From the NCBI GenBank assembly GCA_963828735.1, contig CAWHFW010000002.1, positions 544,001 through 608,000 on the forward strand: a stretch of DNA of 64,000 nt, in the 5' to 3' direction. Shown here piece by piece: positions 2,318 through 60,846 of this stretch. Every line of letters starts with the position of its first letter. Positions within the stretch are counted from its first letter, which is position 1. Source of the stretch: an uncultured Gemmatimonadales bacterium (GTDB taxonomy: Bacteria; Gemmatimonadota; Gemmatimonadetes; Gemmatimonadales; GWC2-71-9). Both the position numbers and the translations under genes were made by a program. The notes under the pieces are model-generated. The model was not told where the DNA came from. It saw nothing but the letters and a program-made list of their open reading frames with translations, and searched no databases.

Positions 2318-2334
2318 TCCACCAAGGTCCACTG
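2318..2334 (+). promoter_or_regulatory. Regulon box
   Basis: tccaccaaggtccactg, with TACGTT 21 bp downstream. Lies upstream of the receiver gene at 2418. Confidence 0.8.
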
Positions 2335-2417
2335 TCTCGCCGGGAGACGCGGTCCTACGTTGCGCCCAGTAGGTACGGCACGCCGTGCTATCGTCTTAGC
2401 TCTCACACAGCGAGCGT

Positions 2418-2855
2418 ATGGGCGCTCCCGGCCGGAAAACGCCGCAACCGCCTGGCGGTGGCGCATCAGGGTCGCCGGTCGTGGCGGTCATCGAGGATGA
2501 TCCCTCGTTCCGTCGAGCGCTGAGCCGATCCCTGAGCCTCCGCGGGTTCCGCACGGACGTGTTCGCCTCGGCCGAGGAGTTCCTGCGGCACCAGGGGGCT
2601 GAGCACGCCGACTGCATCGTGCTCGACATTCACCTGGGCGGGATGAGCGGCTTTGAACTGCAGGCCGAGCTCGCGAGTCGGCCGTCGGCGCCGCCGATCA
2701 TCTTCATCACCGCGTTCGACGATCCCGCCACGCGCCAGCGAGCCCACGAGGCCGGGGCCGCCGCCTACCTCCAGAAGCCCTTCGACGACAAGTCCTTGAT
2801 CGACGCCATCGACCGGGCGGCCCGCCTGCCACGCGGGGGTCGCGGCGGCTCCTAG
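2418..2855 (+). CDS. Single-domain response regulator (receiver only)
   Basis: VAVIEDD, IVLDIHL, FITA and QKPF, with no output domain. Confidence 0.9.
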   Translation: MGAPGRKTPQPPGGGASGSPVVAVIEDDPSFRRALSRSLSLRGFRTDVFASAEEFLRHQGAEHADCIVLDIHLGGMSGFELQAELASRPSAPPIIFITAFDDPATRQRAHEAGAAAYLQKPFDDKSLIDAIDRAARLPRGGRGGS

Positions 2856-2869
2856 CCGAAAGTTCAGTA
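2853..2869 (+). promoter_or_regulatory. Regulon box (variant)
   Basis: tagccgaaagttcagta, with TATGTT 22 bp downstream. Lies upstream of the barrel gene at 2926. Confidence 0.6.
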
Positions 2870-2925
2870 TCACCGGTCCGTCGGCGGTCGGTATGTTCGC
2901 CGCCCAACCGAGAGAGCCGGCTGCC

Positions 2926-4296
2926 ATGAGACGCGCCATTGTTGCCTGCTGTGCACTGCTCGTCGCTGGAACCCGGCTTGCCGCCGGACAGACCGGCGAC
3001 TTCGTCCTTCCCGCCGGGAGCGCCCTGCCCAACTACGATCGGGTGAGCATCGGCCAGCGCGAGGGGATCGAGGCCAACGCCTTCGTCGCGCGGACCGACG
3101 ATGCGGGCGCGAACTGGTACAATCCGGCGGGGCTCGCGCAGAGTGAGAAGAGCGCCGTCAACGCCAGCGCCAATGCGTACGAGTTCACCGGCTTCGCCCT
3201 CGAGGGCGCGGACTTCAAGCGGGGCGGAAAGCGGCTCAGCACGATCGGCTCGTACGTCGGAGGCGTCCTCGGCGACCCGATCATTCACTCGCGCAATTGG
3301 CGACTGGGATTTTCGGTCACCAAGCCGGTCTCCTGGACGCCGAGCCGAGTGGAGGGCCAAATCCCCCTCACCGGGGTTACTGGCGACGAGTCCTTTCTCT
3401 ACTCCTCGTACGTCTCGCTCAGCACGGTTATCCCGGCCCTCAACGTGGGCTATCGGCTCGGAGATCGGCTCCGGCTGGGCGTCGGTCTGGGATGGGCCCA
3501 TACATCGCTGTACCAGAACACGTCGCTCTCCGATCGACTCCTGACTCCCACCGCCGCGTCGACGGCCCTGCACAGCGTCGAGACGGACGGCAGCACGGAC
3601 GGCCTGCTCGTGAGCGCGGGCGTCCAGGCAGACGTGGGCTCGGGCATCAGCTTCGGCGCCCTGGTGACGGCGCCGGGCGTTCGGATCGGCGGCAGCAGTC
3701 GGGTCACCTATCAGGCTACCGCGTTCTCCGGGGCCGTGTCCCGCGACCTCGCGTTTCGCGACGACCAGACCGAGTTCGACTACCGGCTTCCGTTGGCGGC
3801 GACGCTCGGCGCGGCGATCCGGTTCGGCAAGGCCGAGGTCGAGTTCGATCTCAGGTATCACGGCACGCGCGATCGGTACGTGCTCTACTCCAGCGCCATC
3901 CCGGCGGCGCTCGTTACCACTGATGCGGCTGGGGTGCCGACCCAGAGCACGCTGGCCTTCGCGGACGTCACCGAGGAGACCAAGGCCGTCTACAACCTGG
4001 CGATCGGCGGCCACTATTCATTCTCGCCGGGTTTCCGGGTCCACGCCGGATTCTTCACCGACGACAGCCCGGTGGGCAGCCCGGAGACCTCGATCTTCCG
4101 CGAGCTGAATCTGGTGGGGTTCTCCGGGGGCACCTCGTTCGGGGCCGGACGCCTCACCGCCTCGGTGGGCATCTCCGGCTCCCACGGCACAAGCGATCAG
4201 CGCATGATCGGACCGTCCCTGGGCGGCGCGACCGGCAGTACCAAGGTGACGGTGACGACGTACAACCTGCTGTACGCCGTCTCGTACGCCTTCTGA
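2926..4296 (+). CDS. Outer-membrane beta-barrel, FadL/OmpP1-like
   Basis: Signal peptide MRRAIVACC..., AFVARTDDAGANWYNPAGL motif, alternating strands, C-terminal YAF. Confidence 0.75.
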   Translation: MRRAIVACCALLVAGTRLAAGQTGDFVLPAGSALPNYDRVSIGQREGIEANAFVARTDDAGANWYNPAGLAQSEKSAVNASANAYEFTGFALEGADFKRGGKRLSTIGSYVGGVLGDPIIHSRNWRLGFSVTKPVSWTPSRVEGQIPLTGVTGDESFLYSSYVSLSTVIPALNVGYRLGDRLRLGVGLGWAHTSLYQNTSLSDRLLTPTAASTALHSVETDGSTDGLLVSAGVQADVGSGISFGALVTAPGVRIGGSSRVTYQATAFSGAVSRDLAFRDDQTEFDYRLPLAATLGAAIRFGKAEVEFDLRYHGTRDRYVLYSSAIPAALVTTDAAGVPTQSTLAFADVTEETKAVYNLAIGGHYSFSPGFRVHAGFFTDDSPVGSPETSIFRELNLVGFSGGTSFGAGRLTASVGISGSHGTSDQRMIGPSLGGATGSTKVTVTTYNLLYAVSYAF

Positions 4297-4307
4297 GTCG
4301 TCGAACC

Positions 4308-4987: not shown

Positions 4988-5584
4988 CTACTTGGTGAGC
5001 ACGTGCTGCTTCTGCATTTCCTGGACGTTCGCCGTGATGACCTCGTCCACCAGGCTGGCGACCGACGTCGGGTTCATCGTCTCGCTGCGACTGGCCCAGA
5101 TCAGCTTGGCGTCCGCCACCGAGTAGACGTTCGTATTGAAGTTCACGTACTGGTCTTCACGGACGTAGCCCGGGTCGTACGTTGAGCTCCAGCCGTAGGC
5201 CCAGCCACCCCACATGTTGCCGTAGGCCGCGGGCACCGCGTAGGCTTGGCCCGGCACGTAGGTCGCCGTGCGATCCACATTGACGAGGAACATCACCACG
5301 GCGCCGTCGAACCCCGCGTCACGGACCTTCGCCTTGGCCGCCTCGCGGTCCTTCAGCTCGTCGTCCGAGATGAGCGTGTACGAGGGCGTGGAGCCCTTGA
5401 TCCGCTTCGCCAGCCCGTCTTCGACCGTCCGGCGCATGGCGGCATCGCGGCACATGCACGCGGCCAGCACCTTCTTGAACTCGACGGAGCTGGCGGCCGG
5501 ATCTTTCCAGCTGTTCACGACCTGAGTAGTGGGCGCGCAGGCCGCCAGCAGGGCGGCCATCACGAAACCCGGGAACAACCGCAT
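4988..5584 (-). CDS. Lipoprotein, DUF4136-like
   Basis: AAGGAG RBS, LLAAC lipobox, Y/G/W-rich loop and KLIWAS motif. Confidence 0.75.
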   Translation of the reverse strand: MRLFPGFVMAALLAACAPTTQVVNSWKDPAASSVEFKKVLAACMCRDAAMRRTVEDGLAKRIKGSTPSYTLISDDELKDREAAKAKVRDAGFDGAVVMFLVNVDRTATYVPGQAYAVPAAYGNMWGGWAYGWSSTYDPGYVREDQYVNFNTNVYSVADAKLIWASRSETMNPTSVASLVDEVITANVQEMQKQHVLTK

Positions 5585-5636
5585 AGCCAGCTCCTTGAGG
5601 CGATCCTCTAGCATCGGCCGACCCGGCCCCATCGAC

Positions 5637-5653
5637 CAGTAGACCTTGGTCCA
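5637..5653 (-). promoter_or_regulatory. Regulon box
   Basis: Minus strand tggaccaaggtctactg, with GATGCT 21 bp downstream. Confidence 0.8.
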
Positions 5654-5798: not shown

Positions 5799-6587
5799 TT
5801 AGAACCGAATCTCAAGGCCGAGCGCCGGCCCGGTCATGTAGACGTCGTCGACGAAGCCGTCGCTCTCGTAATCCACGTCGAGGTGGCGGTACGCGGCGAG
5901 CACGGCACAGCAGTGCCCGAGGTCATAGCCCCCGCCGCCCATGGCCTGCCAGGTAAACTTGGACCCGCCGCCACCGACGTCCCCCTTGGCCACGAGGTGC
6001 CACTTGGGGCCCGGGCTGTAGCGGAGCCGAGCGCCGACCGTTCCGTCCACCCAGGCCTTGCTGCCGGAGCGGCTCGGGTCCTGGTGTGTCACGCCGACGT
6101 CGACGCTCAGGTGCCAGTAGCGCACGCCCACCAGCCCATCCAGCCCGCCCCACGGCCGGACGAGGAGCGTATAGCCCACCTGCGGCTGGGCGATGACCTG
6201 GTCCAGTGACGTGGTGATACTGTCGGCGCTGCCTTCGGCCACAGGCACGTCATCGTTCAGGTTGAAAAACTGGAAGTCGAGTGCGCCGATCCACCGCGCG
6301 TACCGAGCCTCGAGCACGGCCGAGAAACCGATCTGGACCTCCTGGACGATGTCGCCGAAGCTCAGGTCCACCTCCGACACGCTCCCACCGACTCCGACCT
6401 GGCCCTTCTGACTTGCCGCCCAGAGGTAGGGGGTGAACGAGAACCGCCAGAACGCGGAATCGGCCGGCGCCACGGTGGAGGCGTCTGGAACGACCTGGCC
6501 GGACGCCGGGCCGGCAACGACAGCGCAGAGGACGGTCGCAAGCCCGCCTGCCCACCGCCACCATCTGGATGCTCGGGGCGTCGTCAT
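5799..6587 (-). CDS. Outer-membrane beta-barrel protein
   Basis: Signal peptide, WRFSFTPYLWA, amphipathic strands, C-terminal GLEIRF. Confidence 0.8.
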   Translation of the reverse strand: MTTPRASRWWRWAGGLATVLCAVVAGPASGQVVPDASTVAPADSAFWRFSFTPYLWAASQKGQVGVGGSVSEVDLSFGDIVQEVQIGFSAVLEARYARWIGALDFQFFNLNDDVPVAEGSADSITTSLDQVIAQPQVGYTLLVRPWGGLDGLVGVRYWHLSVDVGVTHQDPSRSGSKAWVDGTVGARLRYSPGPKWHLVAKGDVGGGGSKFTWQAMGGGGYDLGHCCAVLAAYRHLDVDYESDGFVDDVYMTGPALGLEIRF

Positions 6588-6606
6588 GGAGAAGCGGCAG
6601 GATGGC

Positions 6607-9360
6607 TCACGCGCCGCTCAGTGCCTCACGCCCGGCGGCATCGTGGATGCGCGCCAGGCGGTCGAACGCCGACCCGCTGTCCTGAAGGAACCGCTCGGCG
6701 GAGCCGGCGCCGAACAGGCAGATGAGCGCCGAGACGAGCCCGGTCCATCCCGTCTGATGGCTGGCGCCGATACCGGCGCCGTCGTCCCCGTGGAAGTACT
6801 CGTAGAACAGAATCAGATCCCGCCAGTGCGGATCCTCCTGGAACTTCGCCGTAGCGCCGTACACGGGGCGGCGGCCCTTCGCGTCGCGAAGGAAGATCCG
6901 CTCGAGCCGCGTTGCGAGGTCGCGGGCGGCCTCGAACAGCGTGAGGCGAGTACCGGACCCGGTGGGAAGCTCGACGGTGAACTCGTCGCCGTAGAAGCTG
7001 TAGAGCTGCAGCAGCGCCCGAATGAGCAGCAGGTTCACCGGCATCCAGATGGGGCCGCGCCAATTCGAGTTGCCTCCGAACAGTCCCGAGTCCGACTCGG
7101 CCGGAGTGTACGGGACCCGGTACTCCTCGCCGCCGGCGCGGAAGACGTAGGGGTGCTCGAGGTGATAGCGGCTCAGCGCCCGAATGCCGTAGTCCCCCAG
7201 GAACTCGTCCGGGTCGAGCATCCGGGCCACCACACGGCGGATCTTGCCTTCGTCGAGCACCGAGAGCATGCGGCGCGCGTGCACACCGGCGCGGTCGGGC
7301 GGGTTGATGTTCCGGAGCAGCGTGGGATGCCGCTGGTTGAAATCGCACGCGCGGTCGAAGAACATCGGGAGCCGGGTCAGGACCACCTCGGGATAGACGG
7401 TGATGGCGCAGAGGGGGAGCAGCCCGACCATGGAGCGCACCTTGAGCCGTTGGGCCGAGCCGTCGGGAAGCCGGAGGACGTCGTAGTAGAAGCCGTCGGC
7501 GTCGTCCCACATGGTCTGTCCGTCGCCGATCCGATCCATGGCCGACGCGATCCACACGAAGTGCTCGTAGAACTTGACCGCCAGCTCCTCGTAGGCTGGG
7601 TCGTGCAGCGCCAGCTCGAGCGCCATCTCGAGCATGTTCTGGGAGAAGAGCGCCATCCACGCGGTCCCGTCCGCCTGCTCGAGGTGGCCGCCGGTGGGGA
7701 GCGGCGCGCTCCGGTCGAACACCCCGATGTTGTCGAGCCCCAGAAACCCGCCCTCGAAGACGTTCCGGCCGTCGCGGTCCTTCCGGTTGACCCACCACGT
7801 GAAGTTGAGCAGGAGCTTGTGGAACGAGCGCTGGAGGCTCGGCAGGGCGCGCTCGCCGAAGCGGCTCCGTTGCAGGCGGTAGTTGAACAGCGTGGCCCAC
7901 GCATGCACCGGCGGGTTCACGTCGCTGAAGTTCCACTCGTACGCTGGGATCTGCCCGTTCGGATGGGCGTAGCGCGCCCCCAGCATGAGCTCGAGCTGCT
8001 GCATGGCGAAGTCGGGGTCCACCACGGCCAGCGTGATCGCGTGAAAGGCCAGGTCCCAGGCGGCGTACCAGGGGTACTCCCACTTGTCCGGCATGGAGAT
8101 CACGTCGCTGTTGTACATGTGGTACCAGTCGCGGTTCCGGACGTTGCCCTCCTTGCCGCCGGCCGGGTCCACGCCGTGCTCCTCGAGCCAGGGGCCGAGG
8201 TCATAGAGGTACGCCTGCCGGCTCCACAGCATGCCGGCGAATCCCTGCCGCATGACGGCCGCCGCGTCCCCGGTGACCGTCTCCGGGGTGAGCGCGGCGT
8301 AGAACTCGTCGGCCTCGCGCACGCGGGCCGCGAAGGTCTCGTCGAAGGCCTCGAATGCGTCCTCCCGCGACGAGGGGGGCGTCTCGGTCAGGAGGAGCCG
8401 GACCACCTGCGTCTCGCCCGGACCGACCATGAGGGCGTAATGCGCCGCCGACTTGGTCCCCTTCCCCGACGGATCGACCGCTCCGGTGTCGCCCTTCACG
8501 ATGTAGTCGTTGATCCCGTCCTTGACGAAGGGACTCGTGTTGGGACGGCTGGAGAGCCGCGTGAGGTTGGTCTCATTCGCGGTGAACAGAAGCTCGCCCG
8601 CGTTCTCGCAGACGAGGTAGCGGGTGCCGACGTCGGGATGCTGGGCGACGATCGTCTTGGTGCCACGCCGGGTGGGCCCCCGCTCGAGGGACGGCTTCGG
8701 CGCTTCCGGCGAGTGCCACCAGGTGTTTCGGAACCAGAGGTGCGGCAGCACCCGCAGCTCCGCAGCCTCCGGCCCGCGGTTCACGACGCTGATCCGGACC
8801 AGGATCTCCTCAGGCGTGGCCTTGGCGTACTCGACGAACACGTCGAAGTACCGGTCGGCGTCGAACATGCCCGTATCGATCAGCTCGTACTCGGGCTCCG
8901 AGCGGCTGCGGGTCGCGCTGACGTGGACCAGTTCGGCGTATGGGAAGGCGGCCTGGGGGTACTTGTACAGCAGCTTGAGGTACGAGCTCGTGGGCGTCGC
9001 ATCGAGGTAGAAGTAGTACTCTTTCACGTCCTCGCCGTGGTTCCCCTCCGCGTTGGTGAGGCCGAAGAGCCGTTCCTTGATAATCCCGTCCCGGCCGTTC
9101 CACACGGCGACCGCGAAGCAGAGCCGCATCTGGTCGTCACAGAAGCCGGCGATGCCGTCCTCGCCCCAGCGATAGACGCGGGAGCGGGCCTGGTCGTGGG
9201 GAAAGCTGTTCCAGGCGTCGCCGTTCGCGCTGTAGTCCTCGCGAACGGTGCCCCATTGACGCTCGCTGAGGTAGGGCCCCCATGTCCGCCACGGGACGCC
9301 GTCCTCGCGGGCCTGACGCAGGCGCTCCTGCTCATGAGCGACGGGACTCTGATCCACCAC
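6607..9360 (-). CDS. MGH1-like / GH63-type glycoside hydrolase (glucosidase)
   Basis: WGPYLSERQWGTVREDYS, SMPDKWEYPWYAAWDLAFH, NSNWRGPIW and EYFHGD.GAG.GASHQTGWT motifs. Confidence 0.88.
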   Translation of the reverse strand: MVDQSPVAHEQERLRQAREDGVPWRTWGPYLSERQWGTVREDYSANGDAWNSFPHDQARSRVYRWGEDGIAGFCDDQMRLCFAVAVWNGRDGIIKERLFGLTNAEGNHGEDVKEYYFYLDATPTSSYLKLLYKYPQAAFPYAELVHVSATRSRSEPEYELIDTGMFDADRYFDVFVEYAKATPEEILVRISVVNRGPEAAELRVLPHLWFRNTWWHSPEAPKPSLERGPTRRGTKTIVAQHPDVGTRYLVCENAGELLFTANETNLTRLSSRPNTSPFVKDGINDYIVKGDTGAVDPSGKGTKSAAHYALMVGPGETQVVRLLLTETPPSSREDAFEAFDETFAARVREADEFYAALTPETVTGDAAAVMRQGFAGMLWSRQAYLYDLGPWLEEHGVDPAGGKEGNVRNRDWYHMYNSDVISMPDKWEYPWYAAWDLAFHAITLAVVDPDFAMQQLELMLGARYAHPNGQIPAYEWNFSDVNPPVHAWATLFNYRLQRSRFGERALPSLQRSFHKLLLNFTWWVNRKDRDGRNVFEGGFLGLDNIGVFDRSAPLPTGGHLEQADGTAWMALFSQNMLEMALELALHDPAYEELAVKFYEHFVWIASAMDRIGDGQTMWDDADGFYYDVLRLPDGSAQRLKVRSMVGLLPLCAITVYPEVVLTRLPMFFDRACDFNQRHPTLLRNINPPDRAGVHARRMLSVLDEGKIRRVVARMLDPDEFLGDYGIRALSRYHLEHPYVFRAGGEEYRVPYTPAESDSGLFGGNSNWRGPIWMPVNLLLIRALLQLYSFYGDEFTVELPTGSGTRLTLFEAARDLATRLERIFLRDAKGRRPVYGATAKFQEDPHWRDLILFYEYFHGDDGAGIGASHQTGWTGLVSALICLFGAGSAERFLQDSGSAFDRLARIHDAAGREALSGA

Positions 9361-9454
9361 GACGTTCCTCCGTCATGCTCCCGCGCACGGAGTCGCCGGG
9401 GCAAGGTCTCCGCTCCGCTGCCGCTCGCGACCGCCGACAGATAGTGCCGGCGTC

Positions 9455-9472
9455 ATGTCCGATATCGGACAT
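9455..9472. promoter_or_regulatory. Perfect 18-bp palindrome, candidate operator
   Basis: atgtccgatatcggacat equals its own reverse complement and lies about 95 bp upstream of the glycosidase start. Confidence 0.45.
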
Positions 9473-9500
9473 CGGGACCTCCGGACAGCAGCAATCCTGG

Positions 9501-10257: not shown

Positions 10258-10274
10258 CATTGGACCTTGGTGCA
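10258..10274 (-). promoter_or_regulatory. Regulon box
   Basis: Minus strand tgcaccaaggtccaatg, with GATGGT 21 bp downstream. Confidence 0.85.
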
Positions 10275-12396: not shown

Positions 12397-12413
12397 CATT
12401 GGACTTTGGTAGA
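12397..12413 (-). promoter_or_regulatory. Regulon box
   Basis: Minus strand tctaccaaagtccaatg, with TAAGGT 22 bp downstream. Confidence 0.85.
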
Positions 12414-13355: not shown

Positions 13356-13703
13356 TTCCAGATCCTCACTTCGACACGTCTGACTTCGGCGGGAACCCTT
13401 CGAACGGCTTTCCGGCCGCCGTGTGGGTCACGTTGGCCCTGTCTCCCGCTCGCGCCGGGGCACCCGTCGGTTCCCTGGCTTCAGTGCTGGAAGGGATAGG
13501 TGAGGCGGCCAACATGCGGGGGGGCAATGGGGAGGGGCAATTATACCAAAGGTCAGGTGCTCAAACGCGGCATAGGCATATTGCCACGCCGCGCCGGCCT
13601 GGACTGCGGCTACTGACGGGTCCTGGAAAAAAGTGGCCCCATGCGAAGGGCTCTCGCTCGGGTTGGCCGGGCCGGCGGGTGTCTCAGATCGAAGCGGGCT
13701 TGC

Positions 13704-16483: not shown

Positions 16484-16500
16484 AAGTGGACCTTGGTAGG
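16484..16500 (-). promoter_or_regulatory. Regulon box
   Basis: Minus strand cctaccaaggtccactt, with AATACT 21 bp downstream. Confidence 0.75.
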
Positions 16501-16657
16501 GGGCCCGGCGAAATCCCGTCTACCGGACCTGGCGAACGGTGGATCGAGTCCCTGGCAGCCCTCCCGGACCAGGGACCCACTGGACCCTAGCCCTTGGTCG
16601 AGTGTCGCGCCGGGCGGGACCGTGCATCTTGGAGCACCCGCTTCCTTCGAGGGCTCC

Positions 16658-17564: not shown

Positions 17565-17581
17565 CATTGGACTTTGGTTCA
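17565..17581 (-). promoter_or_regulatory. Regulon box with no recognisable downstream gene
   Basis: Minus strand tgaaccaaagtccaatg, with CACCTT 21 bp downstream. Confidence 0.75.
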
Positions 17582-19313: not shown

Positions 19314-19330
19314 CACTGGACCTTCGTGCA
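19314..19330 (-). promoter_or_regulatory. Regulon box
   Basis: Minus strand tgcacgaaggtccagtg. TAGCTG 21 bp downstream is an imperfect -10. Confidence 0.8.
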
Positions 19331-19429: not shown

Positions 19430-19446
19430 TGTACCAAAGTTCAGTC
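19430..19446 (+). promoter_or_regulatory. Regulon box
   Basis: tgtaccaaagttcagtc, with AAGATT 21 bp downstream. Divergent partner of the box at 19314. Confidence 0.75.
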
Positions 19447-21391: not shown

Positions 21392-21408
21392 TGCACCAAG
21401 GTCCAATG
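21392..21408 (+). promoter_or_regulatory. Regulon box
   Basis: tgcaccaaggtccaatg, with CACCTT 22 bp downstream. Confidence 0.85.
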
Positions 21409-23166: not shown

Positions 23167-23167
23167 C

Positions 23168-27850: not shown

Positions 27851-27867
27851 TGTACCAAAGTCCAGCA
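27851..27867 (+). promoter_or_regulatory. Regulon box
   Basis: tgtaccaaagtccagca. TTATCT/TATCTC 20-21 bp downstream is an imperfect -10. Heads the decarboxylase operon. Confidence 0.8.
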
Positions 27868-40991: not shown

Positions 40992-41008
40992 TGCACCAAG
41001 GTGCAATG
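40992..41008 (+). promoter_or_regulatory. Regulon box (perfect 6-2-6 palindrome)
   Basis: tgcacc-aa-ggtgca-atg, with CAGCGT 21 bp downstream. Confidence 0.85.
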
Positions 41009-45125: not shown

Positions 45126-45142
45126 CAGTGGACCTTCGTGCA
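45126..45142 (-). promoter_or_regulatory. Regulon box
   Basis: Minus strand tgcacgaaggtccactg, with CACCTT 22 bp downstream. Confidence 0.85.
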
Positions 45143-47686: not shown

Positions 47687-47703
47687 CAGTACACCTTGGT
47701 ACA
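47687..47703 (-). promoter_or_regulatory. Regulon box
   Basis: Minus strand tgtaccaaggtgtactg, with CAACTT 22 bp downstream. Confidence 0.8.
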
Positions 47704-49119: not shown

Positions 49120-49136
49120 CAGTAGATCCTGGTGCA
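49120..49136 (-). promoter_or_regulatory. Regulon box (variant)
   Basis: Minus strand tgcaccaggatctactg, with no clear -10 at the usual spacing. Confidence 0.6.
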
Positions 49137-49247
49137 CGAGCCGGACACCTGGTGCGCCAAGCGCACCTTTCGCCGCCAACCGGTAGACCACCCTGGGCGC
49201 GACCACCCTGAACGCAAGGGAGCGCCGCCATCGAGCCTCCCAACGCG

Positions 49248-49760: not shown

Positions 49761-49812
49761 ACGGAGGCTCCTCAAGGGGAGCCCCAGAATAGGGCTGTGG
49801 CGGGCCCGGACC

Positions 49813-49829
49813 CATTGGACCTTCGTGCA
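49813..49829 (-). promoter_or_regulatory. Regulon box
   Basis: Minus strand tgcacgaaggtccaatg, with TATTCT 21 bp downstream. Confidence 0.85.
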
Positions 49830-49843
49830 GGGCCCCCCTTGGC

Positions 49844-50815
49844 TTACATCAGGACGCGCTCGGCGCAGAGGCCGATGGACCGTTCCAGGTGCTCCGCATT
49901 AAGGGTCCCGGCCAGCGCGATGAGCGTCACCCGGCACCCGGGGGGCTCCGCCGGCCCCCAGGGGCGGTGGCGGCGGACGCTCCAGCGCGAGCCGAGGTGC
50001 TGGAACAGGAATCGGTGGACCGGGTCCCTAGAGAGGGAGAGCACGCCCTTGGCCCGGAGCACGTTTCGGGGAAGCGCCGCTACCCACCGGCCGAAGGCCG
50101 CCTCCCGTATGGGACCGGGCCCGGCCCAGCTCCAGCGTTCGTACGCCGTCCCGTGGTGGGGAGGAAACTCGGGGCCCTGCGCGGCTTCCACCGTGCGCCG
50201 CTCGAGCCGAGCGTCGTCGGCCCGGTGGCTCCCCAACAGCACCAGCGCCGGAAGGCGAGCGTGCGAGGCCTCGACCACCTGGGCGCCGGGCGCCAGCGCA
50301 TGAAGCCACTGTACGACCGCCGTGCGCTCCCGCGGCGGCACCAGGTCGATCTTGTTCAGGACGAGGAGATCGGCCGATCGGAGCTGCTGCCGGATCCGGA
50401 TCCCCGCGTGCCGTTCCACCGCGGCCAGCCGGATCGTTTCGGCGTCGGCCACGACGATGGTGCCGTCCAGTCGGAAGCCGGGGAGGTGGCCGCACTGGGC
50501 GATCGTCCTCGGATCGGCGATCCCGCTGGCCTCGATGACGACGTGGACCGGGGGGTGGGGGCGGTCGCGGATGGCGCACAGGGTGCCGGCGAGCTCCGCG
50601 CCGAGCGTACAGCAGAAACAGCCATTGTCGAAGCGGAGGAGGTCGTGTTCGCCGCCCTGGACGTCATCGTCGTCGAAGCTGACGTGACCGAAGTCGTCCA
50701 CAGCGAGGACCAGCCGGCGGCTGGTGGCGGTGCGGACCAGATGCCGGAGCAGCGTGGTCTTCCCCGCCCCGAGGTAGCCCGCGACGACGGTGATGGGGAT
50801 GGGGGCCAGGCTCAC
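49844..50815 (-). CDS. CobW/COG0523-family metallochaperone GTPase
   Basis: GYLGAGKTT, GCFCC, EASG, NKID and the C-terminal RAKG motif. Confidence 0.88.
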   Translation of the reverse strand: MSLAPIPITVVAGYLGAGKTTLLRHLVRTATSRRLVLAVDDFGHVSFDDDDVQGGEHDLLRFDNGCFCCTLGAELAGTLCAIRDRPHPPVHVVIEASGIADPRTIAQCGHLPGFRLDGTIVVADAETIRLAAVERHAGIRIRQQLRSADLLVLNKIDLVPPRERTAVVQWLHALAPGAQVVEASHARLPALVLLGSHRADDARLERRTVEAAQGPEFPPHHGTAYERWSWAGPGPIREAAFGRWVAALPRNVLRAKGVLSLSRDPVHRFLFQHLGSRWSVRRHRPWGPAEPPGCRVTLIALAGTLNAEHLERSIGLCAERVLM

Positions 50816-51216
50816 CGGTCCATCTCCCCTACCGCCTCGATGGCGGCGAGGAGCGAGCGGTCCTCGAAGGGCTTGCGCAGGCAGATCACCGCCTCGGACC
50901 GAAGCCGGACCGCCGTCACCTTGGCGTCATCATGGGCGGTGATGAATACGGTCGGAGGCGCGTGGCCGCGGGTGCACAGCTTCGCGTAGAGGTCGATGCC
51001 GTTCATTCCGCCGAGGTACACGTCGAGCACGAGGCAATCCAGCTCATCCGGGGGATTCGTGCTCAGAAACTCCTCGGCGGAGGGATAGGTGCGAACCTCG
51101 AACCCTGTCGCCCGCAGCAGTCGGCCGAGCGCTCCGCGCACGCCCTGATCGTCGTCGACGACGACAATCCGGGTCGGCGCACGATCCGTGGGCGTACGCT
51201 GGAGACTCGCGGTCAT
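50812..51216 (-). CDS. Single-domain response regulator (receiver only)
   Basis: VVVDDD, LVLDVYL, FITA and RKPF. Confidence 0.9.
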   Translation of the reverse strand: MTASLQRTPTDRAPTRIVVVDDDQGVRGALGRLLRATGFEVRTYPSAEEFLSTNPPDELDCLVLDVYLGGMNGIDLYAKLCTRGHAPPTVFITAHDDAKVTAVRLRSEAVICLRKPFEDRSLLAAIEAVGEMDR

Positions 51217-51270
51217 GTGTTTTCTTGGAAGGATGTGACTTACAGAATCGGGTCGGGCTGGGCGGGACGG

Positions 51271-51287
51271 TATTGGCTCTTGGTATA
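51271..51287 (-). promoter_or_regulatory. Regulon box (variant)
   Basis: Minus strand tataccaagagccaata, with GATTCT 21 bp downstream. Confidence 0.6.
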
Positions 51288-51318
51288 ACTCGGCGGCCGC
51301 GTGGCGCGGCCGGCCGTT

Positions 51319-52047
51319 TTATCCCTGCCGGTCGGGACCGGGTTCGGGGCTCCCCTCAGCGCCGCCTCGCCACCCAAGGCGTTCGGCGAGGTGGACCAGC
51401 TGAGCGAGGGAGGCGGCCTCCATCTTTTGCATGACCCGGCCGCGGTGCACCTTGACGGTCTGCTCGGTGGTTCCCAGGCGGCCGGCGATCTGTTTGTTCA
51501 ACAACCCTTGGACGACCAGTGCGAAGACCTCCCGCTCGCGGGGCGTGAGCATCGACAGGCGCTCAGCCACCTGGCGGTGGTCTTCCAGCGCCTGGCGCCG
51601 CATCCGGTCCCGCTCCAGGGCCTGCTCCACGGCCCGGAGCAGGTCATCGTCGTCCACGGGCTTCGTCAGGAAGTCCACCGCGCCCGACTTCATCGCTTTC
51701 ACGCCGGTCGCCACGTCCCCATAGCCCGTGATGAAGATGATCGGGATCTTGCAGCCCGACATCCGCAGCATCGCGAACAGGTCGAGTCCATCGACCTCGG
51801 GGAGCCGCAGGTCGCTCACCAGCACCGCGGGCCCGTGCTCGTTGTGCTTGTCGAGGAATTCGCGCGACGACGCGAAGAGCTCCACCTGATACCCGGCGGT
51901 TCTGAGCAGCCGCCCCAACGCCTTGCGCACATTTGGATCGTCGTCCAGCACGAATACGAAGGGCTGGTCGGCAGCCTGCGGGTCCCCGCTCTCGGTCGAG
52001 CGGGCCCGCGCCTCGGACGGCGGTTCGGACGTGGGACGCGGCTTCAC
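51319..52047 (-). CDS. FixJ/NodW-family response regulator (REC + LuxR HTH)
   Basis: [23 protein letters not shown] and LTPREREV...NKQIA...TVKVHRG. Confidence 0.93.
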
Positions 52048-52553: not shown

Positions 52554-52570
52554 CCGACCAAAGTCCAGTA
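52554..52570 (+). promoter_or_regulatory. Regulon box
   Basis: ccgaccaaagtccagta, with TAAGCT 22 bp downstream. Heads tamB-tamA. Confidence 0.8.
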
Positions 52571-52612
52571 TCCTGGGGCACGTAGACGGCGATAAGCTGG
52601 ATCGTCTCGGCC

Positions 52613-55600: not shown

Positions 55601-57757
55601 CTGCAGGCGACCCACCTCGCCCTTGGCCCTCGGCGAGCCCGGGCGGTGCACGCGTCGCTCGACGGGAGCCTCGCGGCCGATCGGTCGATCGCCGCGGGAA
55701 CCGGCAGCATCGTGATGGAGAATGTCACGGTGCCCGGCCGACGCATCGGGCGCTTGCGTGTCGACGGCTCGTATGGCGCTCAGCAGCTGGCCGTTCGCGG
55801 GCACGTGGAGCTGGACCGCTTGCGCACCCTGACGCTGGCGGCGCGCGCCTACCCGGCCACCGCGGAGCGGAGGGTGGAGCTCGATACGCTCGTGGTAAGG
55901 GGCGACAAGCAGACCTGGGCGCTCCGCCATCCGGTGCGCATGACCTACGGGCAGCGCATGGCGATTCAGGATTTCGCCCTGGTCTCCGGCGGACGCAGGA
56001 TCGGGATCGACGGCATCGTCGACCGCCGCGGTGAGCAGCGGATGACGGTGGCGATCGATTCGCTCCCCGTCGCCTGGCTGAGCGAGCTGCTCGGCAGCGG
56101 CACGACGGACGGAGAGATCAACGGCAGGCTGGATCTCACGGGCCCCGCCACGGCCCCGAAGTTGGCGGGCACGCTGGCGGTCGGCCTCACGTCGCGCGGC
56201 AAGAAGGTCGGCACGGCCCGCGCGGGCCTGGAGTGGATCGGCGCGCGAGGGCTGCGTCTCGACGTGGGCGTCTATCACCCCGATGGCGACAGTCTTCGCG
56301 TCACCGGCCGGGTTCCGCTCGCGCTCTCGCTTGCCTCCGACGATTCGAGCCGCGGCGTGGTGAGCCGGATTCCAGCCGGCGAGCTGACGATGGATGCCGT
56401 GGCCAATGGATTCCGGATCGACATGCTCCAGCCTCTGCTCGATCCGAAAACCGCCAAGTCGCTTCGTGGCCGGCTCACCGTGGACGCTCACGCCCGAGGA
56501 AGCCTGGAATCACCCGTCCTGTCCGGCAGCGTCGAGCTCACCGAGGCGAGGATCGAGATCCCTCGCCTTGGCGCGACCTACGACAACGGTCACATGCGGG
56601 CCACCCTCGAGGGTCGGAACGTTCGGCTGAACGAGGCGCGGTTCGAGGCCGGCGGGGGGCGCTTGGACGGCAAGGGCGTGATCAGTGTCCAGGAGGCCCA
56701 GCGCATCGGGCTCGACCTCGACGCCACCATGGAGGACTTCCGGCTCGCCGACGGCGACAACCTCGGCGCGACCACGTCGGGCAGGGTCCACCTCGGCGGC
56801 ACTCCCAAGGCGCCGTCGCTCGAGGGGGCCGTGAAGGTTCGGAACCTCGACTACTACCTCCAGGCAAAGAGTCTCGGCCAGTCGGCTGAGGCAGTCGAGC
56901 TCACGGCGGAAGACCTACGCATCCTTGAGGACCGATTCGGCGTCACGGCCGATCAGTCCGTCCGCGGGGCCCCATCGCCCTGGGCGATGAACCTCGACCT
57001 GACACTGTCCGGGAACGACTGGCTCCGGCGTCGGACCAGCCCGGTCGTTGCCGTCGAGCTGTCCGGCAACCTCCAGATCCGGAAGGCTGCGGGGGAGGAC
57101 ATGCAGATCTTCGGCGCGATTCAGCCGCTCGCGGGCCGGAGCTTCGTGGAGCTTCTCGGGCGCCGGTTCCAGGTCACGAGCGGCCAGGTCGGGTTGAACG
57201 GGCCAATGAAGAACGCCCGCCTCAACCTGCTCGCCGAATATCGTGCCGACTCGGGCAGCAGCAGCACGTCTCCCTCGGGAGTCGTGATTACGACGCAGCT
57301 CAAGGCGGATACCGGGCAGCTGGCGGTCACGCTGGACTCGCGTCCCAAGCTGAGTAACGCGGACATCCGCTCCTATCTAGCAACGGGACGCCCCGCGGGG
57401 ACGGATCCGACGCGTGCCAACGACGAAACGAATCCGCTGACCGCTGGGGCGTCGCTGGCGGTGGGCGCCGCGCTCGGCACGGTCGCCGGCGGAGCCGGGC
57501 GCGCGCTCGGATTCGACGTCGTGCAGATTCTCCAGGATCGGAACGGCGGGCAGACCCTCGTCGCCGGCAAGTACGTTTCGCCCCCCTTATACCTCGGATT
57601 TCGGGAACCGATCGTCGCGGCGGAGGATCCTTCCGAGCCGCAATCGTCGAGGGGGAGCATGGAGTGGGAAGTCGAATATGCCGCGCTCCGACGCGCACTG
57701 CTCAATCTCCAGGGTTCCGGCGAGGAATTCCGCGCCTTCCTGCGGCTCCGGCGGTGA
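52613..57757 (+). CDS. tamB: Translocation and assembly module TamB-like protein
   Basis: About 1700 aa, N-terminal TM, repetitive beta-taco sequence, C-terminal DUF490-like GKYVSP.LY. Start is uncertain. Confidence 0.82.
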   Translation: MPPGAARPCFRLPNRRRRTVTLARTLLRVLLRLLTIGALVVLGFIVALYLGGATWIVNRVLQRVDPFPDTSLQTARVSGNLLTELTLHDVRLIRADSQPAWRLDSVRAAYDPRQLFGNEIVIREGMVFGPDVVLQQLTNSKWDLPRPRPKRAGAGPSKGPRITIERLAVSGGRAAVRFSGSRAGRVAHLDSVNALAADIRIANGVRISRAMIRLRARNEQGTPERATIVAKGSVEPDLITIADLSVHSPGSTISAHGAIPLRRGKGQTRGPGRLEAHVVAQPLQFRDLSLLDARFERAGSVGLTFDLGGERDGFMLRAKAGFSDGGTAHAEGYLTARGVTPVEYRGSAMLRSVDPSLFTLGPTRSERVNGDLEVDLHGSRADLMNGRAALQVYDSRYGPIRATRAQAKATFTEGRARLAAETEWKPFAMALNGWLRPFDTVPTYDLTARLGRLPGDTSSVWLERLLGSGTARVAVNVKGRGAGPRTADLSVVASLERGTGPRGLLDSVSLQARLMSGSAEVRGRLGATGGLVAFRGQAVLGDALQYRVERATIDHVRLSALAGDTTASSLDATFSLRGTGTSADSAEAHAEVQVARMSYGRHELAGGRLDLGLRQGTTRVVARGTMDGAAVDVDASARPFAAEPVVMVDHLRFRHVDLARVAPGAGLSSDLSGMARVRVRGRRSEALHVEGGMTLEPSRLGADTLEEGTIEASLDRGDLTVRTRLLWPAGRLTLAGTARPFDSLPTYSVREGAFQGLDLGKLLRRPSLRTALSGSLRLEGRGREAKSARLDGTITVDSSIVNRTVIRGGRLQLALTDGRARIVGGLRGDGDSITIDGTAEPFATPRRVHLTSQIAIADLAALLGRDTIDAGGAARIVVEGELGRPEATRLRGTIRGNGHFAGISVDSLRADGRLAAGLLDLDTLAIRSNVAHLTGGGRVALYGPDATARSAFRLGGSLRDLAPLGPVLGIEGLAVDSGRVDLRLDGPKARTHLEADLQATHLALGPRRARAVHASLDGSLAADRSIAAGTGSIVMENVTVPGRRIGRLRVDGSYGAQQLAVRGHVELDRLRTLTLAARAYPATAERRVELDTLVVRGDKQTWALRHPVRMTYGQRMAIQDFALVSGGRRIGIDGIVDRRGEQRMTVAIDSLPVAWLSELLGSGTTDGEINGRLDLTGPATAPKLAGTLAVGLTSRGKKVGTARAGLEWIGARGLRLDVGVYHPDGDSLRVTGRVPLALSLASDDSSRGVVSRIPAGELTMDAVANGFRIDMLQPLLDPKTAKSLRGRLTVDAHARGSLESPVLSGSVELTEARIEIPRLGATYDNGHMRATLEGRNVRLNEARFEAGGGRLDGKGVISVQEAQRIGLDLDATMEDFRLADGDNLGATTSGRVHLGGTPKAPSLEGAVKVRNLDYYLQAKSLGQSAEAVELTAEDLRILEDRFGVTADQSVRGAPSPWAMNLDLTLSGNDWLRRRTSPVVAVELSGNLQIRKAAGEDMQIFGAIQPLAGRSFVELLGRRFQVTSGQVGLNGPMKNARLNLLAEYRADSGSSSTSPSGVVITTQLKADTGQLAVTLDSRPKLSNADIRSYLATGRPAGTDPTRANDETNPLTAGASLAVGAALGTVAGGAGRALGFDVVQILQDRNGGQTLVAGKYVSPPLYLGFREPIVAAEDPSEPQSSRGSMEWEVEYAALRRALLNLQGSGEEFRAFLRLRR

Positions 57758-59916
57758 CCCGCGGGCGCGCGTTGGCGCTGGCCCTCCTGATGCTCAGTGC
57801 CACGCTGCGGGTGGCAGCGGCACAGGATTCTCTCCTCGCCATTCGTCCGGATGCTCAGGTCGAGTCCGTCGACTTCCGCTTCGCAGGCACCCGGAGCTTC
57901 TCCTCCGTCGAGCTCGGTGAGCAGCTTGCGGTCAAGGGCCGCGGCTCGCTCTATGACGTCCGGCGTCTGCTCGGCAAACTCCCACTGATCCCCACGCCGG
58001 GCACGTTCACCTTCGATCCCGTCGAGCTCCAGAAGGACGTGGTCCGGCTCCGCCGGTTCTACCAGCGGGCCGGCTTCTTCGAGCCGCAACTGGACTACGA
58101 GGTCCGGACCAACGACGCGGGCACGCTGGTGAAGGTGGTCTTCCTCATCGACGAGGGAGCGGCGACTCCGCTCCGAAGCGTGCGGGTCGTGAGCTCGGAC
58201 GGAGATTCGGCCCTTTCCCTGCCCGACTCGCTTCGGGAGAGCTGGGCGGAGTTCGAGCGCGAGCTCACTGCCGGCCGCGGCCGGCGCCTCGGGGAGACCG
58301 ATCTCGTCGCCGTCGAAAATCGAACGCTCGAATGGCTCCGCCAGCGCGGTTATCCCTTCGCCACCGTGCGTTCAACGCGGACGGTGGATTCGCTCGCGAA
58401 AGCGGTCGACGTGGTCCTGACGGCGGATCCGGGCCCCCGGAGCCGGATCGGACGAATTGCCGTCGAGGGCAACGCGTCGGTAAGCGATCGGGTGGTGACG
58501 CGGGTGCTGCCCTTTCAGACCGGCGACTGGTATTCCTCGGACGAGCTCGCAATCGCCCGGAAGCGGCTCCAGACCGTGGATTTGCTGTCAGACGCCGTAG
58601 TGGACGTCGACTCGCAACCGGCCCCCGACTCGACCCTCGCCGTTCGCATCCGGGTACACGAGACCCGTCCCAGCCTGACCCTCGCCGAGGTGGGCTACAT
58701 CTCCGAGGGTGCCGGCCTCACGGGCCGGGTGCAGTGGACGCATCCCAACTTCACCGGCGGCGCGCGCAGCCTGACAGCCTCGCTCGAGGGGCAGACGGGC
58801 GCCGGGGCGATCGGGACCGAGGCCGAGCAGCTCCTCCGCGGCTCGCTCAGCCTCACGCAGCCCTTTGTGTTCGATCCCCGATTCTCCCTGATCTTCGGCC
58901 CCTGGGCGGAGTACCGGAACGACCTGAAGGATCGTTCCGGCGCAATCGGCCTCACAGCGACCCTGGTGCGCCGATTTCTTCCCCTCTCCTCCATCGCGCT
59001 GCAGTACCAGTTCAGCGCCCGTCATATCGACGAGTACCACTTTGGCGACGTCTCGGCCGGCGACGTCAGCTTGGGCGAGCTGCTGTCGCTTCAATTCCCC
59101 CACCTGATCGACTCGCTCGGACGTGACCAGAACAAGAGCACGATCACGCTGTCCGGCACGTTCAGCAACGTGGACGATCTGGGCGATCCCCGCCGGGGCT
59201 GGGTGGTCCGGCCGGCGGCCGAGATCACGGTGCCCGCAGTGCTCAGCACGGTCGAGTTTGGTCGGCTCGACCTCTCCGTGACCCGCTTTCAGCCAATCGC
59301 GCGGAACGTCGTGCTGATGGCGCGCTTCTCGGCCGGGCGGCTCTTCCCGTACGGCAAGAGCGCGCCCGCCCCCGGCGAGGATCCGACCTTCGATTTCATT
59401 CGCCTGAGAGACGAGTCGATGACGGCGGGGGGGACGAACGACGTCCGGGGATGGGGCGACCGGATGCTGGGCCCCAAGGTGCCCGACGTGGAAGGACACA
59501 TCGAGGGCTCGGACACCGTGTTCGTCGCCGACCACTACGCACCCGTGGGGGCGCTGGCTAGGCTCAGCGGCTCGGTCGAGCTACGGTTTCCGGCTCCAGG
59601 TCTGACGCCGGCCTGGCGAACCAGCGTGTTCGTCGATGGTGGGAGAGTATGGACGCCCGACGAGCGGTTCTCGCAGGCACGCCTCCTCCCGGAGAACACC
59701 GAATTCCGTTTCTCGATCGGTGCGGGGATCAGCTACCAGACGCCCATTGGTGCGCTGGGGCTCAGCGTGGGATACAAGCTGAACCCGTCCGCGGTGGACG
59801 TGCGCGACCCAGGCAAGGTGCTGGACGCGCTGATCGCCGGCTTGCCGGTGACGAGCGTCGAGTCCGAGTCGATCCGGCGCTATCACCTGCACCTGTCGTT
59901 CGGCGTGGCGCTGTAG
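57754..59916 (+). CDS. tamA: TamA/BamA-family Omp85 protein with POTRA domains
   Basis: POTRA motifs YQRAGFF and RGYPFA, AGGTNDVRGW and VELRF. GTGA overlap with tamB. Confidence 0.82.
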   Translation: MTRGRALALALLMLSATLRVAAAQDSLLAIRPDAQVESVDFRFAGTRSFSSVELGEQLAVKGRGSLYDVRRLLGKLPLIPTPGTFTFDPVELQKDVVRLRRFYQRAGFFEPQLDYEVRTNDAGTLVKVVFLIDEGAATPLRSVRVVSSDGDSALSLPDSLRESWAEFERELTAGRGRRLGETDLVAVENRTLEWLRQRGYPFATVRSTRTVDSLAKAVDVVLTADPGPRSRIGRIAVEGNASVSDRVVTRVLPFQTGDWYSSDELAIARKRLQTVDLLSDAVVDVDSQPAPDSTLAVRIRVHETRPSLTLAEVGYISEGAGLTGRVQWTHPNFTGGARSLTASLEGQTGAGAIGTEAEQLLRGSLSLTQPFVFDPRFSLIFGPWAEYRNDLKDRSGAIGLTATLVRRFLPLSSIALQYQFSARHIDEYHFGDVSAGDVSLGELLSLQFPHLIDSLGRDQNKSTITLSGTFSNVDDLGDPRRGWVVRPAAEITVPAVLSTVEFGRLDLSVTRFQPIARNVVLMARFSAGRLFPYGKSAPAPGEDPTFDFIRLRDESMTAGGTNDVRGWGDRMLGPKVPDVEGHIEGSDTVFVADHYAPVGALARLSGSVELRFPAPGLTPAWRTSVFVDGGRVWTPDERFSQARLLPENTEFRFSIGAGISYQTPIGALGLSVGYKLNPSAVDVRDPGKVLDALIAGLPVTSVESESIRRYHLHLSFGVAL

Positions 59917-59919
59917 GCG

Positions 59920-60708
59920 TCAGTTGACGGTGTAGCCGCGGCCCTGGAGGCAGGTCGCCATCGCCTTGCTGAACTTGTCCATCGTAGCGGAAGCCTGAGC
60001 GGTTGCCTGCTGCTGCCCCTGCTGTTCGGCCTGCGCGTCGGCCTGCTTCTTGGACTTTCGTCCGCGAGCGCCCCCGGCAACGGCGCCGACGGCGGCCCCT
60101 GTGCCGGCGTCACCCACAATGGCGCCCACGACGGCGCCGCCGGCTGCCCCCCTTGCAGCGCCGGAAACGGCTGCTCCAGAGGTGGCGGAATCCGATTGTG
60201 CCTTCGCGGCCTTGCCCGCGGAATCGGCGTTCACGCTCACCTTCGTGGGATCGATCCCGGTCTGCTCCTTCGCCCATTGGTAGCAGGCTCCTTCGTCCTG
60301 CACCTGCTGGGCCTGGGACTGCCCCTTCGCCGCGTACACGGTGAGGCCGACCTGCGCAGCCAGCTTGGGATCGACCACCTCGGCTGCCGGCGCGGGCGCC
60401 GGCGCGGCGGCAACTGCGGGCGCCGCGGCCGGAGCAGACGGCTCGGCGGCGGGCTTCGGGGCAGCCTTCTTGGGCTCCTGCTTCCCAGTGGCGGGCGGTG
60501 CCGCGGACGGCTGGGCGGCCACCGATTCAGCCGGCTGCACCGACACCGTCGGCCCGGCGGGCGCCGATGTCGCCGCCGCGGTCTCCGGCGTTGATGTCTT
60601 GGTCGCGGCGGTCTCATCGGCCCTGTTCGCCCTGCCCTTGCAGGCGGATGCGGCCGCCAGGCCGGCCACCACGGCCAGGGTCAGAACGGAACGTCCGGAG
60701 ATTTGCAT
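59920..60708 (-). CDS. Glycine-zipper (YMGG-like) lipoprotein
   Basis: ASAC lipobox, YAAKGQS..Q..D...CY.WA..QTG, GAxxGA zipper and CLQGRGY. Confidence 0.8.
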   Translation of the reverse strand: MQISGRSVLTLAVVAGLAAASACKGRANRADETAATKTSTPETAAATSAPAGPTVSVQPAESVAAQPSAAPPATGKQEPKKAAPKPAAEPSAPAAAPAVAAAPAPAPAAEVVDPKLAAQVGLTVYAAKGQSQAQQVQDEGACYQWAKEQTGIDPTKVSVNADSAGKAAKAQSDSATSGAAVSGAARGAAGGAVVGAIVGDAGTGAAVGAVAGGARGRKSKKQADAQAEQQGQQQATAQASATMDKFSKAMATCLQGRGYTVN

Positions 60709-60805
60709 GATGCCAACCTCATCTCTGCACAGATTCGACTGGGTGGACCACCCGGGCGCACCGGCCCGGGGCCCTTGTAGGGTAGGCCACGTCGCGCGCA
60801 TCCGA

Positions 60806-60822
60806 CACTGCACTTCCGTCCA
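60806..60822 (-). promoter_or_regulatory. Regulon box (variant)
   Basis: Minus strand tggacggaagtgcagtg, with TACCCT 21 bp downstream. Confidence 0.7.
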
Positions 60823-60829
60823 GTGCTCC

Positions 60830-60846
60830 TCCACCAAGGTCCAATG
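60830..60846 (+). promoter_or_regulatory. Regulon box
   Basis: tccaccaaggtccaatg, with TAGCGT 21 bp downstream. Confidence 0.85.

Follow-up and report, generated by a model that had tools for sequence, protein, structure and literature searches.

A repeated 17-bp motif in an uncultured Gemmatimonadales genome resembles the activator sites of StyR/TodT-type response regulators

The window analysed here is a 64,000-nucleotide stretch (C2:544001-608000) of the 4.78-Mb genome of an uncultured Gemmatimonadales bacterium, and it carries 20 copies of a 17-bp motif that is real and not a product of chance. These copies are very probably class II activator sites in sigma70-type promoters, bound by the phosphorylated form of a response regulator resembling StyR and TodT. 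Most copies stand at a fixed distance from a -10 box, and the motif is conserved in relatives and co-occurs with genes for regulators of this kind, whose binding would activate the genes that follow. Two such regulators (J1 and J2), two sensor kinases (HK1 and HK2) and two stand-alone receivers (REC1 and REC2) are encoded in the window (Table 1). In its mode of action the element appears to be a StyR/TodT-type activator site, distinct from those of StyR/TodT proper, FixJ proper and EL222.

All 20 of the 17-mers proposed in an earlier sequence-only reading of this DNA were recovered at the coordinates and on the strands it gave, and all are intergenic by hexamer-based gene calls, as it had claimed. 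Its claim that the sites face the next gene also held for 19 of the 20; site 17565 has no called gene downstream. The consensus written in that reading fits only 6 of these 20 genuine sites exactly and was dropped as a description of the motif. Its 6-2-6 symmetry with a 2-bp spacer proved incorrect: the actual symmetry lies around four bases, giving a 5-4-5 palindrome, TGnAC-N4-GTnCA, with an AC-N4-GT core. This plain form occurs exactly in 10/20 sites, and the columns that vary little or not at all are T1, A4, C5, A7, A8, G10, T11, A14 and T16.

Leave-one-out scores of the sites range from 11.6 to 27.2 bits. At a score of at least 14, third-order Markov simulation yields 0.4 matches per 64 kb (maximum 3) and the window yields 21, a count that is circular because the matrix was trained on the same sites. 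This circularity is avoided by an independent matrix made from de novo sites in loci outside Gemmatimonadota (the best 19 of 36), which places 16/20 sites in the top 30 and 19/20 in the top 60 of the 127,962 scored positions of the window; site 49120, the weakest, ranks 480. Of the 33 genome-wide matches of the window matrix at 18 bits or more, 18 fall in the window, which makes up 1.3% of the genome. The sequence-only reading had proposed such a scan as a check for coding or randomly oriented occurrences; of the 15 matches outside the window, 13 lie between genes, in a genome of which intergenic DNA makes up 15%, and each of these 13 points the same way as the gene after it. At the looser level of 14 bits, 29/56 outside matches are intergenic and the remainder are mostly noise. 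A second cluster of sites lies at C5:2.52-2.56 Mb, where the loci L143-L144 (C5:2523119-2556726) contain five or more strong sites of the promoter type, preceding barrel, carbonic anhydrase, AI-2E and TAXI-like genes.

A model built from 144 sites of relatives recovers 19/20 sites, missing 49120, adds a site at 13539 (-) and places three further sites 390, 466 and 1025 bp to the left of the window. Genome-wide it gives 51 matches, and a reversed control still gives 19; its weak matches are therefore unreliable. Conservation was also checked on orthologous genes, as had been suggested, and sites recur in relatives before homologues of many targets, including REC1 (25 loci), TamB, the gene at 49248 and the lipoprotein at 4988 (6 loci each) and the barrel at 9501 (5 loci). 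That the motif is a non-regulatory dispersed repeat, the end of a mobile element or a chance pattern is hardly credible: the flanks of the 17-mer carry almost no information, the sites are intergenic, oriented and conserved before orthologues, and an Rfam search of the window found nothing.

The promoter geometry is equally regular. In 17/20 sites, a hexamer of the form nAnnnT begins at position 39 or 40 of the motif, compared with an intergenic background of 5.9%. These offsets were read off the window, and their proper tests are sites outside it, where the same -10 pattern accompanies 11/13 intergenic sites elsewhere in the genome, 35/48 sites in cross-phylum loci and 83/111 sites in genus-level loci, the last two sets partly sharing genomes. 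The -10 box is of sigma70 type and lies 21-22 bp downstream of the motif, which puts the centre of the palindrome at -43.5 or -44.5 from the predicted +1 in 17/20 sites and makes the NTG tail coincide with the -35 region; both the -35 and the -10 boxes are poor matches. Overlap of the motif with the -35 region and a -10 box at a fixed distance account for the strand bias and the NTG tail. The orientation of the AA spacer and NTG tail described in the sequence-only reading is thus genuine, although the -10 promoter element downstream had been overlooked. Its counterpart in other phyla is a symmetric 18-mer, ATnGGAC-N4-GTCCnAT, with 7-bp arms, which implies that T16 is an operator position retained on the promoter side.

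A directional element with one stronger arm and a -10 box at a fixed distance could also be the promoter of an alternative, extracytoplasmic-function (ECF) sigma factor with a long -35 box and no activator. This is very unlikely, since the element is a symmetric 18-bp palindrome in other phyla, its -10 box is the sigma70-type nAnnnT, and across phyla it lies directly behind a response-regulator gene and varies with that regulator's recognition helix.

Pfam matches identify J1 and J2 as regulators with a receiver domain (REC) and a GerE/LuxR helix-turn-helix (HTH), alongside the histidine kinases HK1 and HK2. Each regulator gene is followed by a site and a gene for a stand-alone receiver, an arrangement of operator and REC that is conserved in relatives; the closest relatives of the regulator are in Gemmatimonadales metagenome-assembled genomes. 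Among 80 GTDB loci around relatives of J2, the window matrix gives 34 matches of at least 18 bits in 16 loci, whereas the reversed matrix gives 1 and permuted columns give 1.25. Gibbs sampling behind the regulator gene in 36 loci outside Gemmatimonadota rediscovered ATcgGACCAAGGTCcaATag; for loci with Ile/Val-type helices, sampling was restricted to the region behind the stop codon, as a wider run had locked onto coding sequence.

Co-occurrence was followed in 102 other genomes of the genus, which are kin and often incomplete and of which 38 have a FixJ-like match. Strict sites number 3-13 in each of the 12 genomes whose regulator has the K-E-G helix of J1. Eight genomes with an R-E-G helix carry 0-4, under a pattern that excludes their arm variant GTACA, and 14/15 with only E-I/E-V regulators have none. 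Among the 64 genomes without a FixJ-like match, 50 have no strict site, 12 have one and two have 3 and 5, the 5-site genome holding a split K-E-G gene. In five distant genomes the strict IUPAC pattern gives 1-5 matches against 0-4 in controls, which is nearly uninformative, and in a phylum-wide sample of 150 other genomes only three have at least three strict matches. A plasmid search returned 423 records, all less than 60% identical, with no named regulator among the 60 listed.

The proposal of the sequence-only reading that the binder belongs to the NarL/FixJ/LuxR-type HTH class is supported, and the two FixJ-like proteins of the window are the foremost candidates. J1, the common denominator of site-bearing genomes, is most likely the binder; J1 acting alone is somewhat favoured, joint binding by J1 and J2 is a less probable arrangement, and J2 alone is unlikely. 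CRP/FNR proteins also bind near -41.5, and the genome contains 2 HTH_Crp_2 and 16 GerE matches, so a different dimeric activator at the class II position, such as a CRP/FNR-family or another GerE-domain protein, might be considered. It is nevertheless improbable: both CRP-type genes are distant from the island; within the genus, the motif goes with the local FixJ-like regulator, depends on its helix type and changes with it; and the half-site of the motif fits EL222/StyR-type boxes.

Several described systems share parts of this organization. StyR combines a receiver domain with a NarL/FixJ-type HTH, as J1 and J2 do, and is the best PDB match of J2 (E 9.5e-52). Its consensus, ATAAAC-N4-GTTTAT, has the AC-N4-GT core of the window motif (PMC5874301), and its activating site, the STY2 box of PstyA, lies at about -40 (PMC2442086), close to the centres derived from predicted start sites in the window. 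Compared with the StyS/StyR, TodS/TodT and TmoT boxes of Pseudomonas, the window sites have TGnAC instead of TAAAC arms and regulators with E-G or E-Q instead of E-V helices, and they belong to about 30 promoters of envelope and stress genes instead of a single catabolic operon; the signal would enter through kinases of the GAF-PAS and MASE1-PAS types. Arms of TGnAC/GTnCA and envelope or stress targets set the system apart from StyR/TodT proper, with its ATAAAC box and aromatic catabolism.

EL222, the LOV-HTH protein of Erythrobacter litoralis, provides the closest PDB HTH to that of J1 (E 7.8e-13), with S-E-K-T-V-K-M-H-R-G where J1 has K-E-G-T-V-K-M-H-R-G. Its published 12-bp consensus is RGNCYWWRGNCY (PMC10521638); the right half-site fits 13/20 window sites, and the whole, with at most two mismatches, fits 18/20. 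EL222 activates sigma70 promoters when its box overlaps the -35 (PMC5001607). It is, however, a one-component light sensor without a receiver, whereas J1 and J2 have receiver domains, and J1 has Gly where EL222 has Lys; the likeness is limited to the HTH and the site. The sequence-only reading had not recognised the motif as a described one; its half-sites do resemble the EL222 site, but no description of it as a natural operator was found in the open literature.

The comparison also bears on the possibility that the same regulator represses otherwise active promoters from a box over the -35. EL222 represses from a site between -35 and -10, and the site conserved ahead of HK1 (L141:13610, +), which lies 390 bp to the left of the window, ends in AAGT rather than ANTG and lacks the usual -10 spacing. 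Repression is nonetheless improbable as the general effect: instead of sitting between the two hexamers, the box lies upstream of the -35 and overlaps it; both hexamers are poor, as at activator-dependent promoters; and StyR activates from about -40. The HK1 site, which shows the same AAGT end and atypical -10 spacing in L113-L115 and L119, possibly reflects autoregulation with a different geometry.

NarL/NarP sites consist of inverted half-sites with a 2-bp spacer (7-2-7), while the window motif is symmetric around four bases and has 7-bp arms in other phyla. DosR/DevR of Mycobacterium has a NarL-type HTH, an E-K-T-V-K helix, a large stress regulon and a box that may resemble the window motif; the sequence match between the proteins is distant (E 3e-12), and heme GAF sensors and hypoxia genes such as those for universal stress proteins are not features seen in the window. 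The FixL/FixJ and FixT proteins of rhizobia and Caulobacter combine a kinase, a FixJ-like regulator and a single-domain receiver, as in the window, and FixT acts as a feedback inhibitor of FixL in Caulobacter (PMC7078487). J1 and J2 score 154 and 204 bits against an NCBIfam FixJ cut-off of 255, HK1 and HK2 score 193 and 332 bits against a FixL cut-off of 850, reported FixJ sites differ from the motif (PMC4999443), and the window system contains no fixK.

Variation in the recognition helix is accompanied by variation in the operator arms. With the arm positions masked, a search behind each regulator gene found sites above threshold for 20/21 rows with Gly, 27/48 with Ile/Val and 25/72 with Lys/Gln/Arg after the helix E. 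After removal of duplicate rows, position +6 is T in 26/27 Ile/Val sites and C in 18/20 Gly and 15/23 Lys/Gln/Arg sites, and both types are present within this genus. The residue that the arm bases track aligns with DosR Lys179, which contacts bases together with Lys182 and Asn183 (PMC4082495, PMC5861037). StyR (E-V-T-V-K) and EL222 (E-K-T-V-K-M-H-R-G) both fit this rule with their respective boxes. The Gly of J1 may have lost the contact with position 3, where 16/20 sites depart from the EL222 consensus.

These patterns allow a broader and clearly tentative interpretation, in which widespread, undescribed self-regulating cassettes, each made up of a kinase, a StyR-like regulator, its own operator and a stand-alone receiver, would follow a recognition code set by one helix residue and would be natural counterparts of the EL222 box. 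The Gly variant would run an island of about 70 kb and scattered promoters as a single acid- or envelope-stress programme with receiver feedback. The details of the code are no less speculative: Ile or Val would call for A at -6 and Lys, Gln or Arg for G-G-A-C arms, and Gly, confined here to one Gemmatimonadales clade, would relax position -5. A sister cassette was observed in the same genus (L081, L085, L086, L088, L090, L092-L094 and L102), whose regulator has an E-I helix and whose sites, TATAC-N4-GTATA/GTACA and some of them in tandem pairs 23 bp apart, precede a different set of genes. In Bradyrhizobium (L016-L050), a conserved CAAAC-CTAA-GTATG element overlaps the regulator stop codon with a -10 box at the same spacing and is a candidate operator of an E-I type regulator in cultured rhizobia.

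For class II activation in the window, the proposed sequence of events would begin with a signal that activates HK1, or HK2, after which HK1 would phosphorylate J1. The phosphorylated J1 dimer, perhaps with the help of J2, would bind the N4-spaced palindrome about 43.5-44.5 bp upstream of the start, where the promoter-side arm and NTG tail overlap the -35 region and the nAnnnT -10 box is weak, and would recruit sigma70 RNA polymerase. About 22 promoters in the island and about a dozen elsewhere would thereby be switched on together, driving genes for barrels and their assembly proteins, lipoproteins, decarboxylase/antiporter pairs, sulfatases, PPK2 and small membrane proteins of the stress type. 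The stand-alone receiver gene directly behind that of the regulator would be induced as well, probably as feedback, and its product may damp the kinase, much as FixT does in Caulobacter.

Same-strand runs headed by a site, with gaps of at most 450 bp and with 13539 and the weak site 16588 included, comprise 44 of the 50 called genes as putative operons. Envelope targets in the window include beta-barrels, a DcaP porin, TamB-TamA, an Omp85 protein and lipoproteins. Two DUF308 (HdeD-like) proteins, MarC, sulfatases, a HAD hydrolase, CobW and a DUF3302-HlyD-OEP-SulP-PPK2 run are also preceded by sites, as are two Asp-Ala exchangers, an aspartate 4-decarboxylase and an Orn/Lys/Arg decarboxylase-like protein. 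Sites outside the window precede an OmpA-FGE-CobW-aquaporin run and genes for DUF202, DUF3604 and DUF937 proteins, an AI-2E transporter, a bestrophin-like protein, a transglycosylase-associated protein and what is probably a carbonic anhydrase. Decarboxylase/antiporter pairs and HdeD-like and MarC proteins point to acid or envelope stress, and judging from gene content such stress could, at a little short of even chances, be the signal. In the 36 loci outside Gemmatimonadota, only sulfatase, FGE, HAD, PPK2 and GH63 genes recur near the regulator, in 3-5 loci each.

Several observations weigh against parts of this interpretation. Within 10 kb of the regulator outside Gemmatimonadota, a sulfatase occurs in 5/36 loci and AspT, HdeD and MarC in 0/36; window targets are thus rarely near the regulator there, and the acid-stress reading is not general. 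Sites 19314, 27851 and 49120 lack the A..T -10 pattern. The full EL222 consensus is matched by only 1/20 sites, with 16/20 differing at position 3. The yield of operator sites is limited for Ile/Val and Lys/Gln/Arg regulators, and to the 27 Ile/Val sites Bradyrhizobium and close Alphaproteobacteria contribute 14 near-copies. A quick tree was built from 72 regulators, one per locus, each with a site scoring at least 10.8; on it the covariation of helix and arms needs only three changes and hence represents a few events, not 70. One genome of the genus (G242) has three sites and no regulator found, and another (G177, 84% complete) has five sites with only a J2-type gene found, which keeps J2 among the possible binders.

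Table 1. Motif sites and signalling genes of the window
Feature	Position	Strand	Context
Putative operator	2318..2334	+	Before REC1; -10 TACGTT 2356-2361; predicted +1 2368; kept before REC1 homologues, 25 loci
Putative operator	2853..2869	+	Before outer-membrane barrel gene 2926-4296; -10 TATGTT 2892-2897
Putative operator	5637..5653	-	Before lipoprotein gene 4988-5614, whose start is probably further in because the predicted +1 is 5603; homologues in 6 loci
Putative operator	10258..10274	-	Before barrel / GH63-MGH1 / barrel run 5799-10172; homologues in 5 loci
Putative operator	12397..12413	-	Before small ORF, DUF3943 and lipoprotein genes 10287-12363; 4 loci
Additional site, reversed spacer	13539..13555	-	Before HAD hydrolase gene 12420-13355; -10 CATGTT; relatives-only model; absent from earlier list
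Putative operator	16484..16500	-	Before hypothetical gene 15397-16258 and downstream run; 4 loci
Weak candidate, reversed spacer	16588..16604	+	Before barrel gene 16658-17233; -10 one base nearer; below model threshold
Strong putative operator	17565..17581	-	-10 CACCTT; no called gene downstream
Putative operator	19314..19330	-	Before DUF308 (HdeD-like)-VOC fusion gene 17855-19261
Putative operator	19430..19446	+	Before membrane protein and MarC genes 19480-21362
Putative operator	21392..21408	+	Before DUF3302/HlyD/OEP/SulP/PPK2 run 21555-27370; predicted +1 21443
Putative operator	27851..27867	+	Before DcaP porin/AspT/Orn-Lys-Arg decarboxylase-like/racemase-like/second Asp-Ala exchanger/aspartate 4-decarboxylase run 27970-38534; TIGR03802 and TIGR03801 above cut-off
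Putative operator	40992..41008	+	Before lipoprotein gene 41043-42197; predicted +1 41042; may also serve divergent DUF502 gene
Putative operator	45126..45142	-	Before split sulfatase gene 42609-44974
Putative operator	47687..47703	-	Before sulfatase gene 45152-47530; 2 loci
Weakest site	49120..49136	-	Before DUF2780 protein and DUF308 (HdeD-like) genes 47837-49076; without clear -10
Putative operator	49813..49829	-	Before secreted hypothetical gene 49248-49760; -10 TATTCT; predicted +1 49779; 6 loci
Putative operator	51271..51287	-	Before REC2 and CobW genes
Putative operator	52554..52570	+	Before TamB-TamA run 52613-59916; 6 loci
Putative operator	60806..60822	-	Before glycine-zipper lipoprotein gene
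Putative operator	60830..60846	+	Before Omp85-family gene 60936-62231
HK1 sensor kinase	1..1624	+	Hydrophobic N-terminus, GAF, PAS, HisKA, HATPase; starts 340 bp left of window
J1 StyR/FixJ-type response regulator	1599..2294	+	REC + GerE; recognition helix K-E-G-T-V-K-M-H-R-G
REC1 stand-alone receiver	2481..2855	+	Candidate feedback inhibitor
REC2 stand-alone receiver	50812..51216	-
J2 second StyR/FixJ-type response regulator	51319..52047	-	48% identical to J1
HK2 sensor kinase	62228..64000	-	MASE1, three PAS, HisKA, HATPase; extends 1053 bp past window

Some features of the window stand beside this scheme. The predicted starts at 41042-41045 and 12362-12363 coincide with ATG codons, which suggests leaderless mRNAs; a 92-aa open reading frame (ORF) at 12085-12363 (-) was not called by the gene model. 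Downstream of site 17565, about 290 nt (17240-17531, -) contain no called gene and converge on the barrel gene at 16658-17233; an orphan promoter, or the promoter of a small RNA or small ORF reading toward 17240, is possible, and the stretch 17230-17600 gave no blastn match in the related loci compared and no Rfam match. The second sulfatase gene (42609-44974, -) is split in two frames near 43800-43895 by a frameshift or an assembly error, its joined halves being about 40% identical to the intact sulfatase. A short ORF at 15072-15269 (-) without a Pfam match is perhaps a gene remnant; by eye, we take it to be like the C-terminal end of an arylsulfatase. At 38806-39590 (+), two similar tandem short ORFs share a C-terminal segment and have no Pfam match, and the second looks frameshifted. 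The 947-aa Orn/Lys/Arg decarboxylase-like protein at 30968-33811 (+), between AspT and the racemase-like gene, is longer than reference enzymes and falls below every NCBIfam cut-off.

Public RNA data cover the window sparsely, as 14 runs held only 5-10% of the sequence words of 45000-53000. Four of the runs were compared as contigs, and X2 and X6 seem to derive from mixed relatives or from DNA. In X1, a contig that differs at 1 of 689 bases terminates at 49781, within 2 bases of the predicted +1 at 49779, and in X4 one ends at 49768; contigs cannot show starts, the comparison had no silent control, and these ends are not counted as evidence. In the open literature, with subscription journals, RegPrecise, PRODORIC and supplements outside the scope, no description was found of the motif as a natural operator, of the gene set as a regulon or of a matching regulator, and the excerpts of PMC10454721 and PMC4653623 contained nothing relevant.

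Class II activation by a two-component regulator is a textbook mechanism, and the system looks like a well-known type of switch, here in an exceptionally large version that seems undescribed. The window contributes the scale of this regulon, a variant with a Gly helix, the contrast within one genus and the link to EL222. If the interpretation is true, this would be among the few concrete regulons of an uncultured, soil-type Gemmatimonadales lineage, and many unannotated barrels, lipoproteins and DUF proteins would be linked to a single switch, giving a clue to what they do. The placement of a site behind the regulator gene across phyla pairs many regulators with operators, and such pairs give a testable recognition code for the HTH common to StyR, TodT and the optogenetic EL222, possibly with new orthogonal EL222-like parts.

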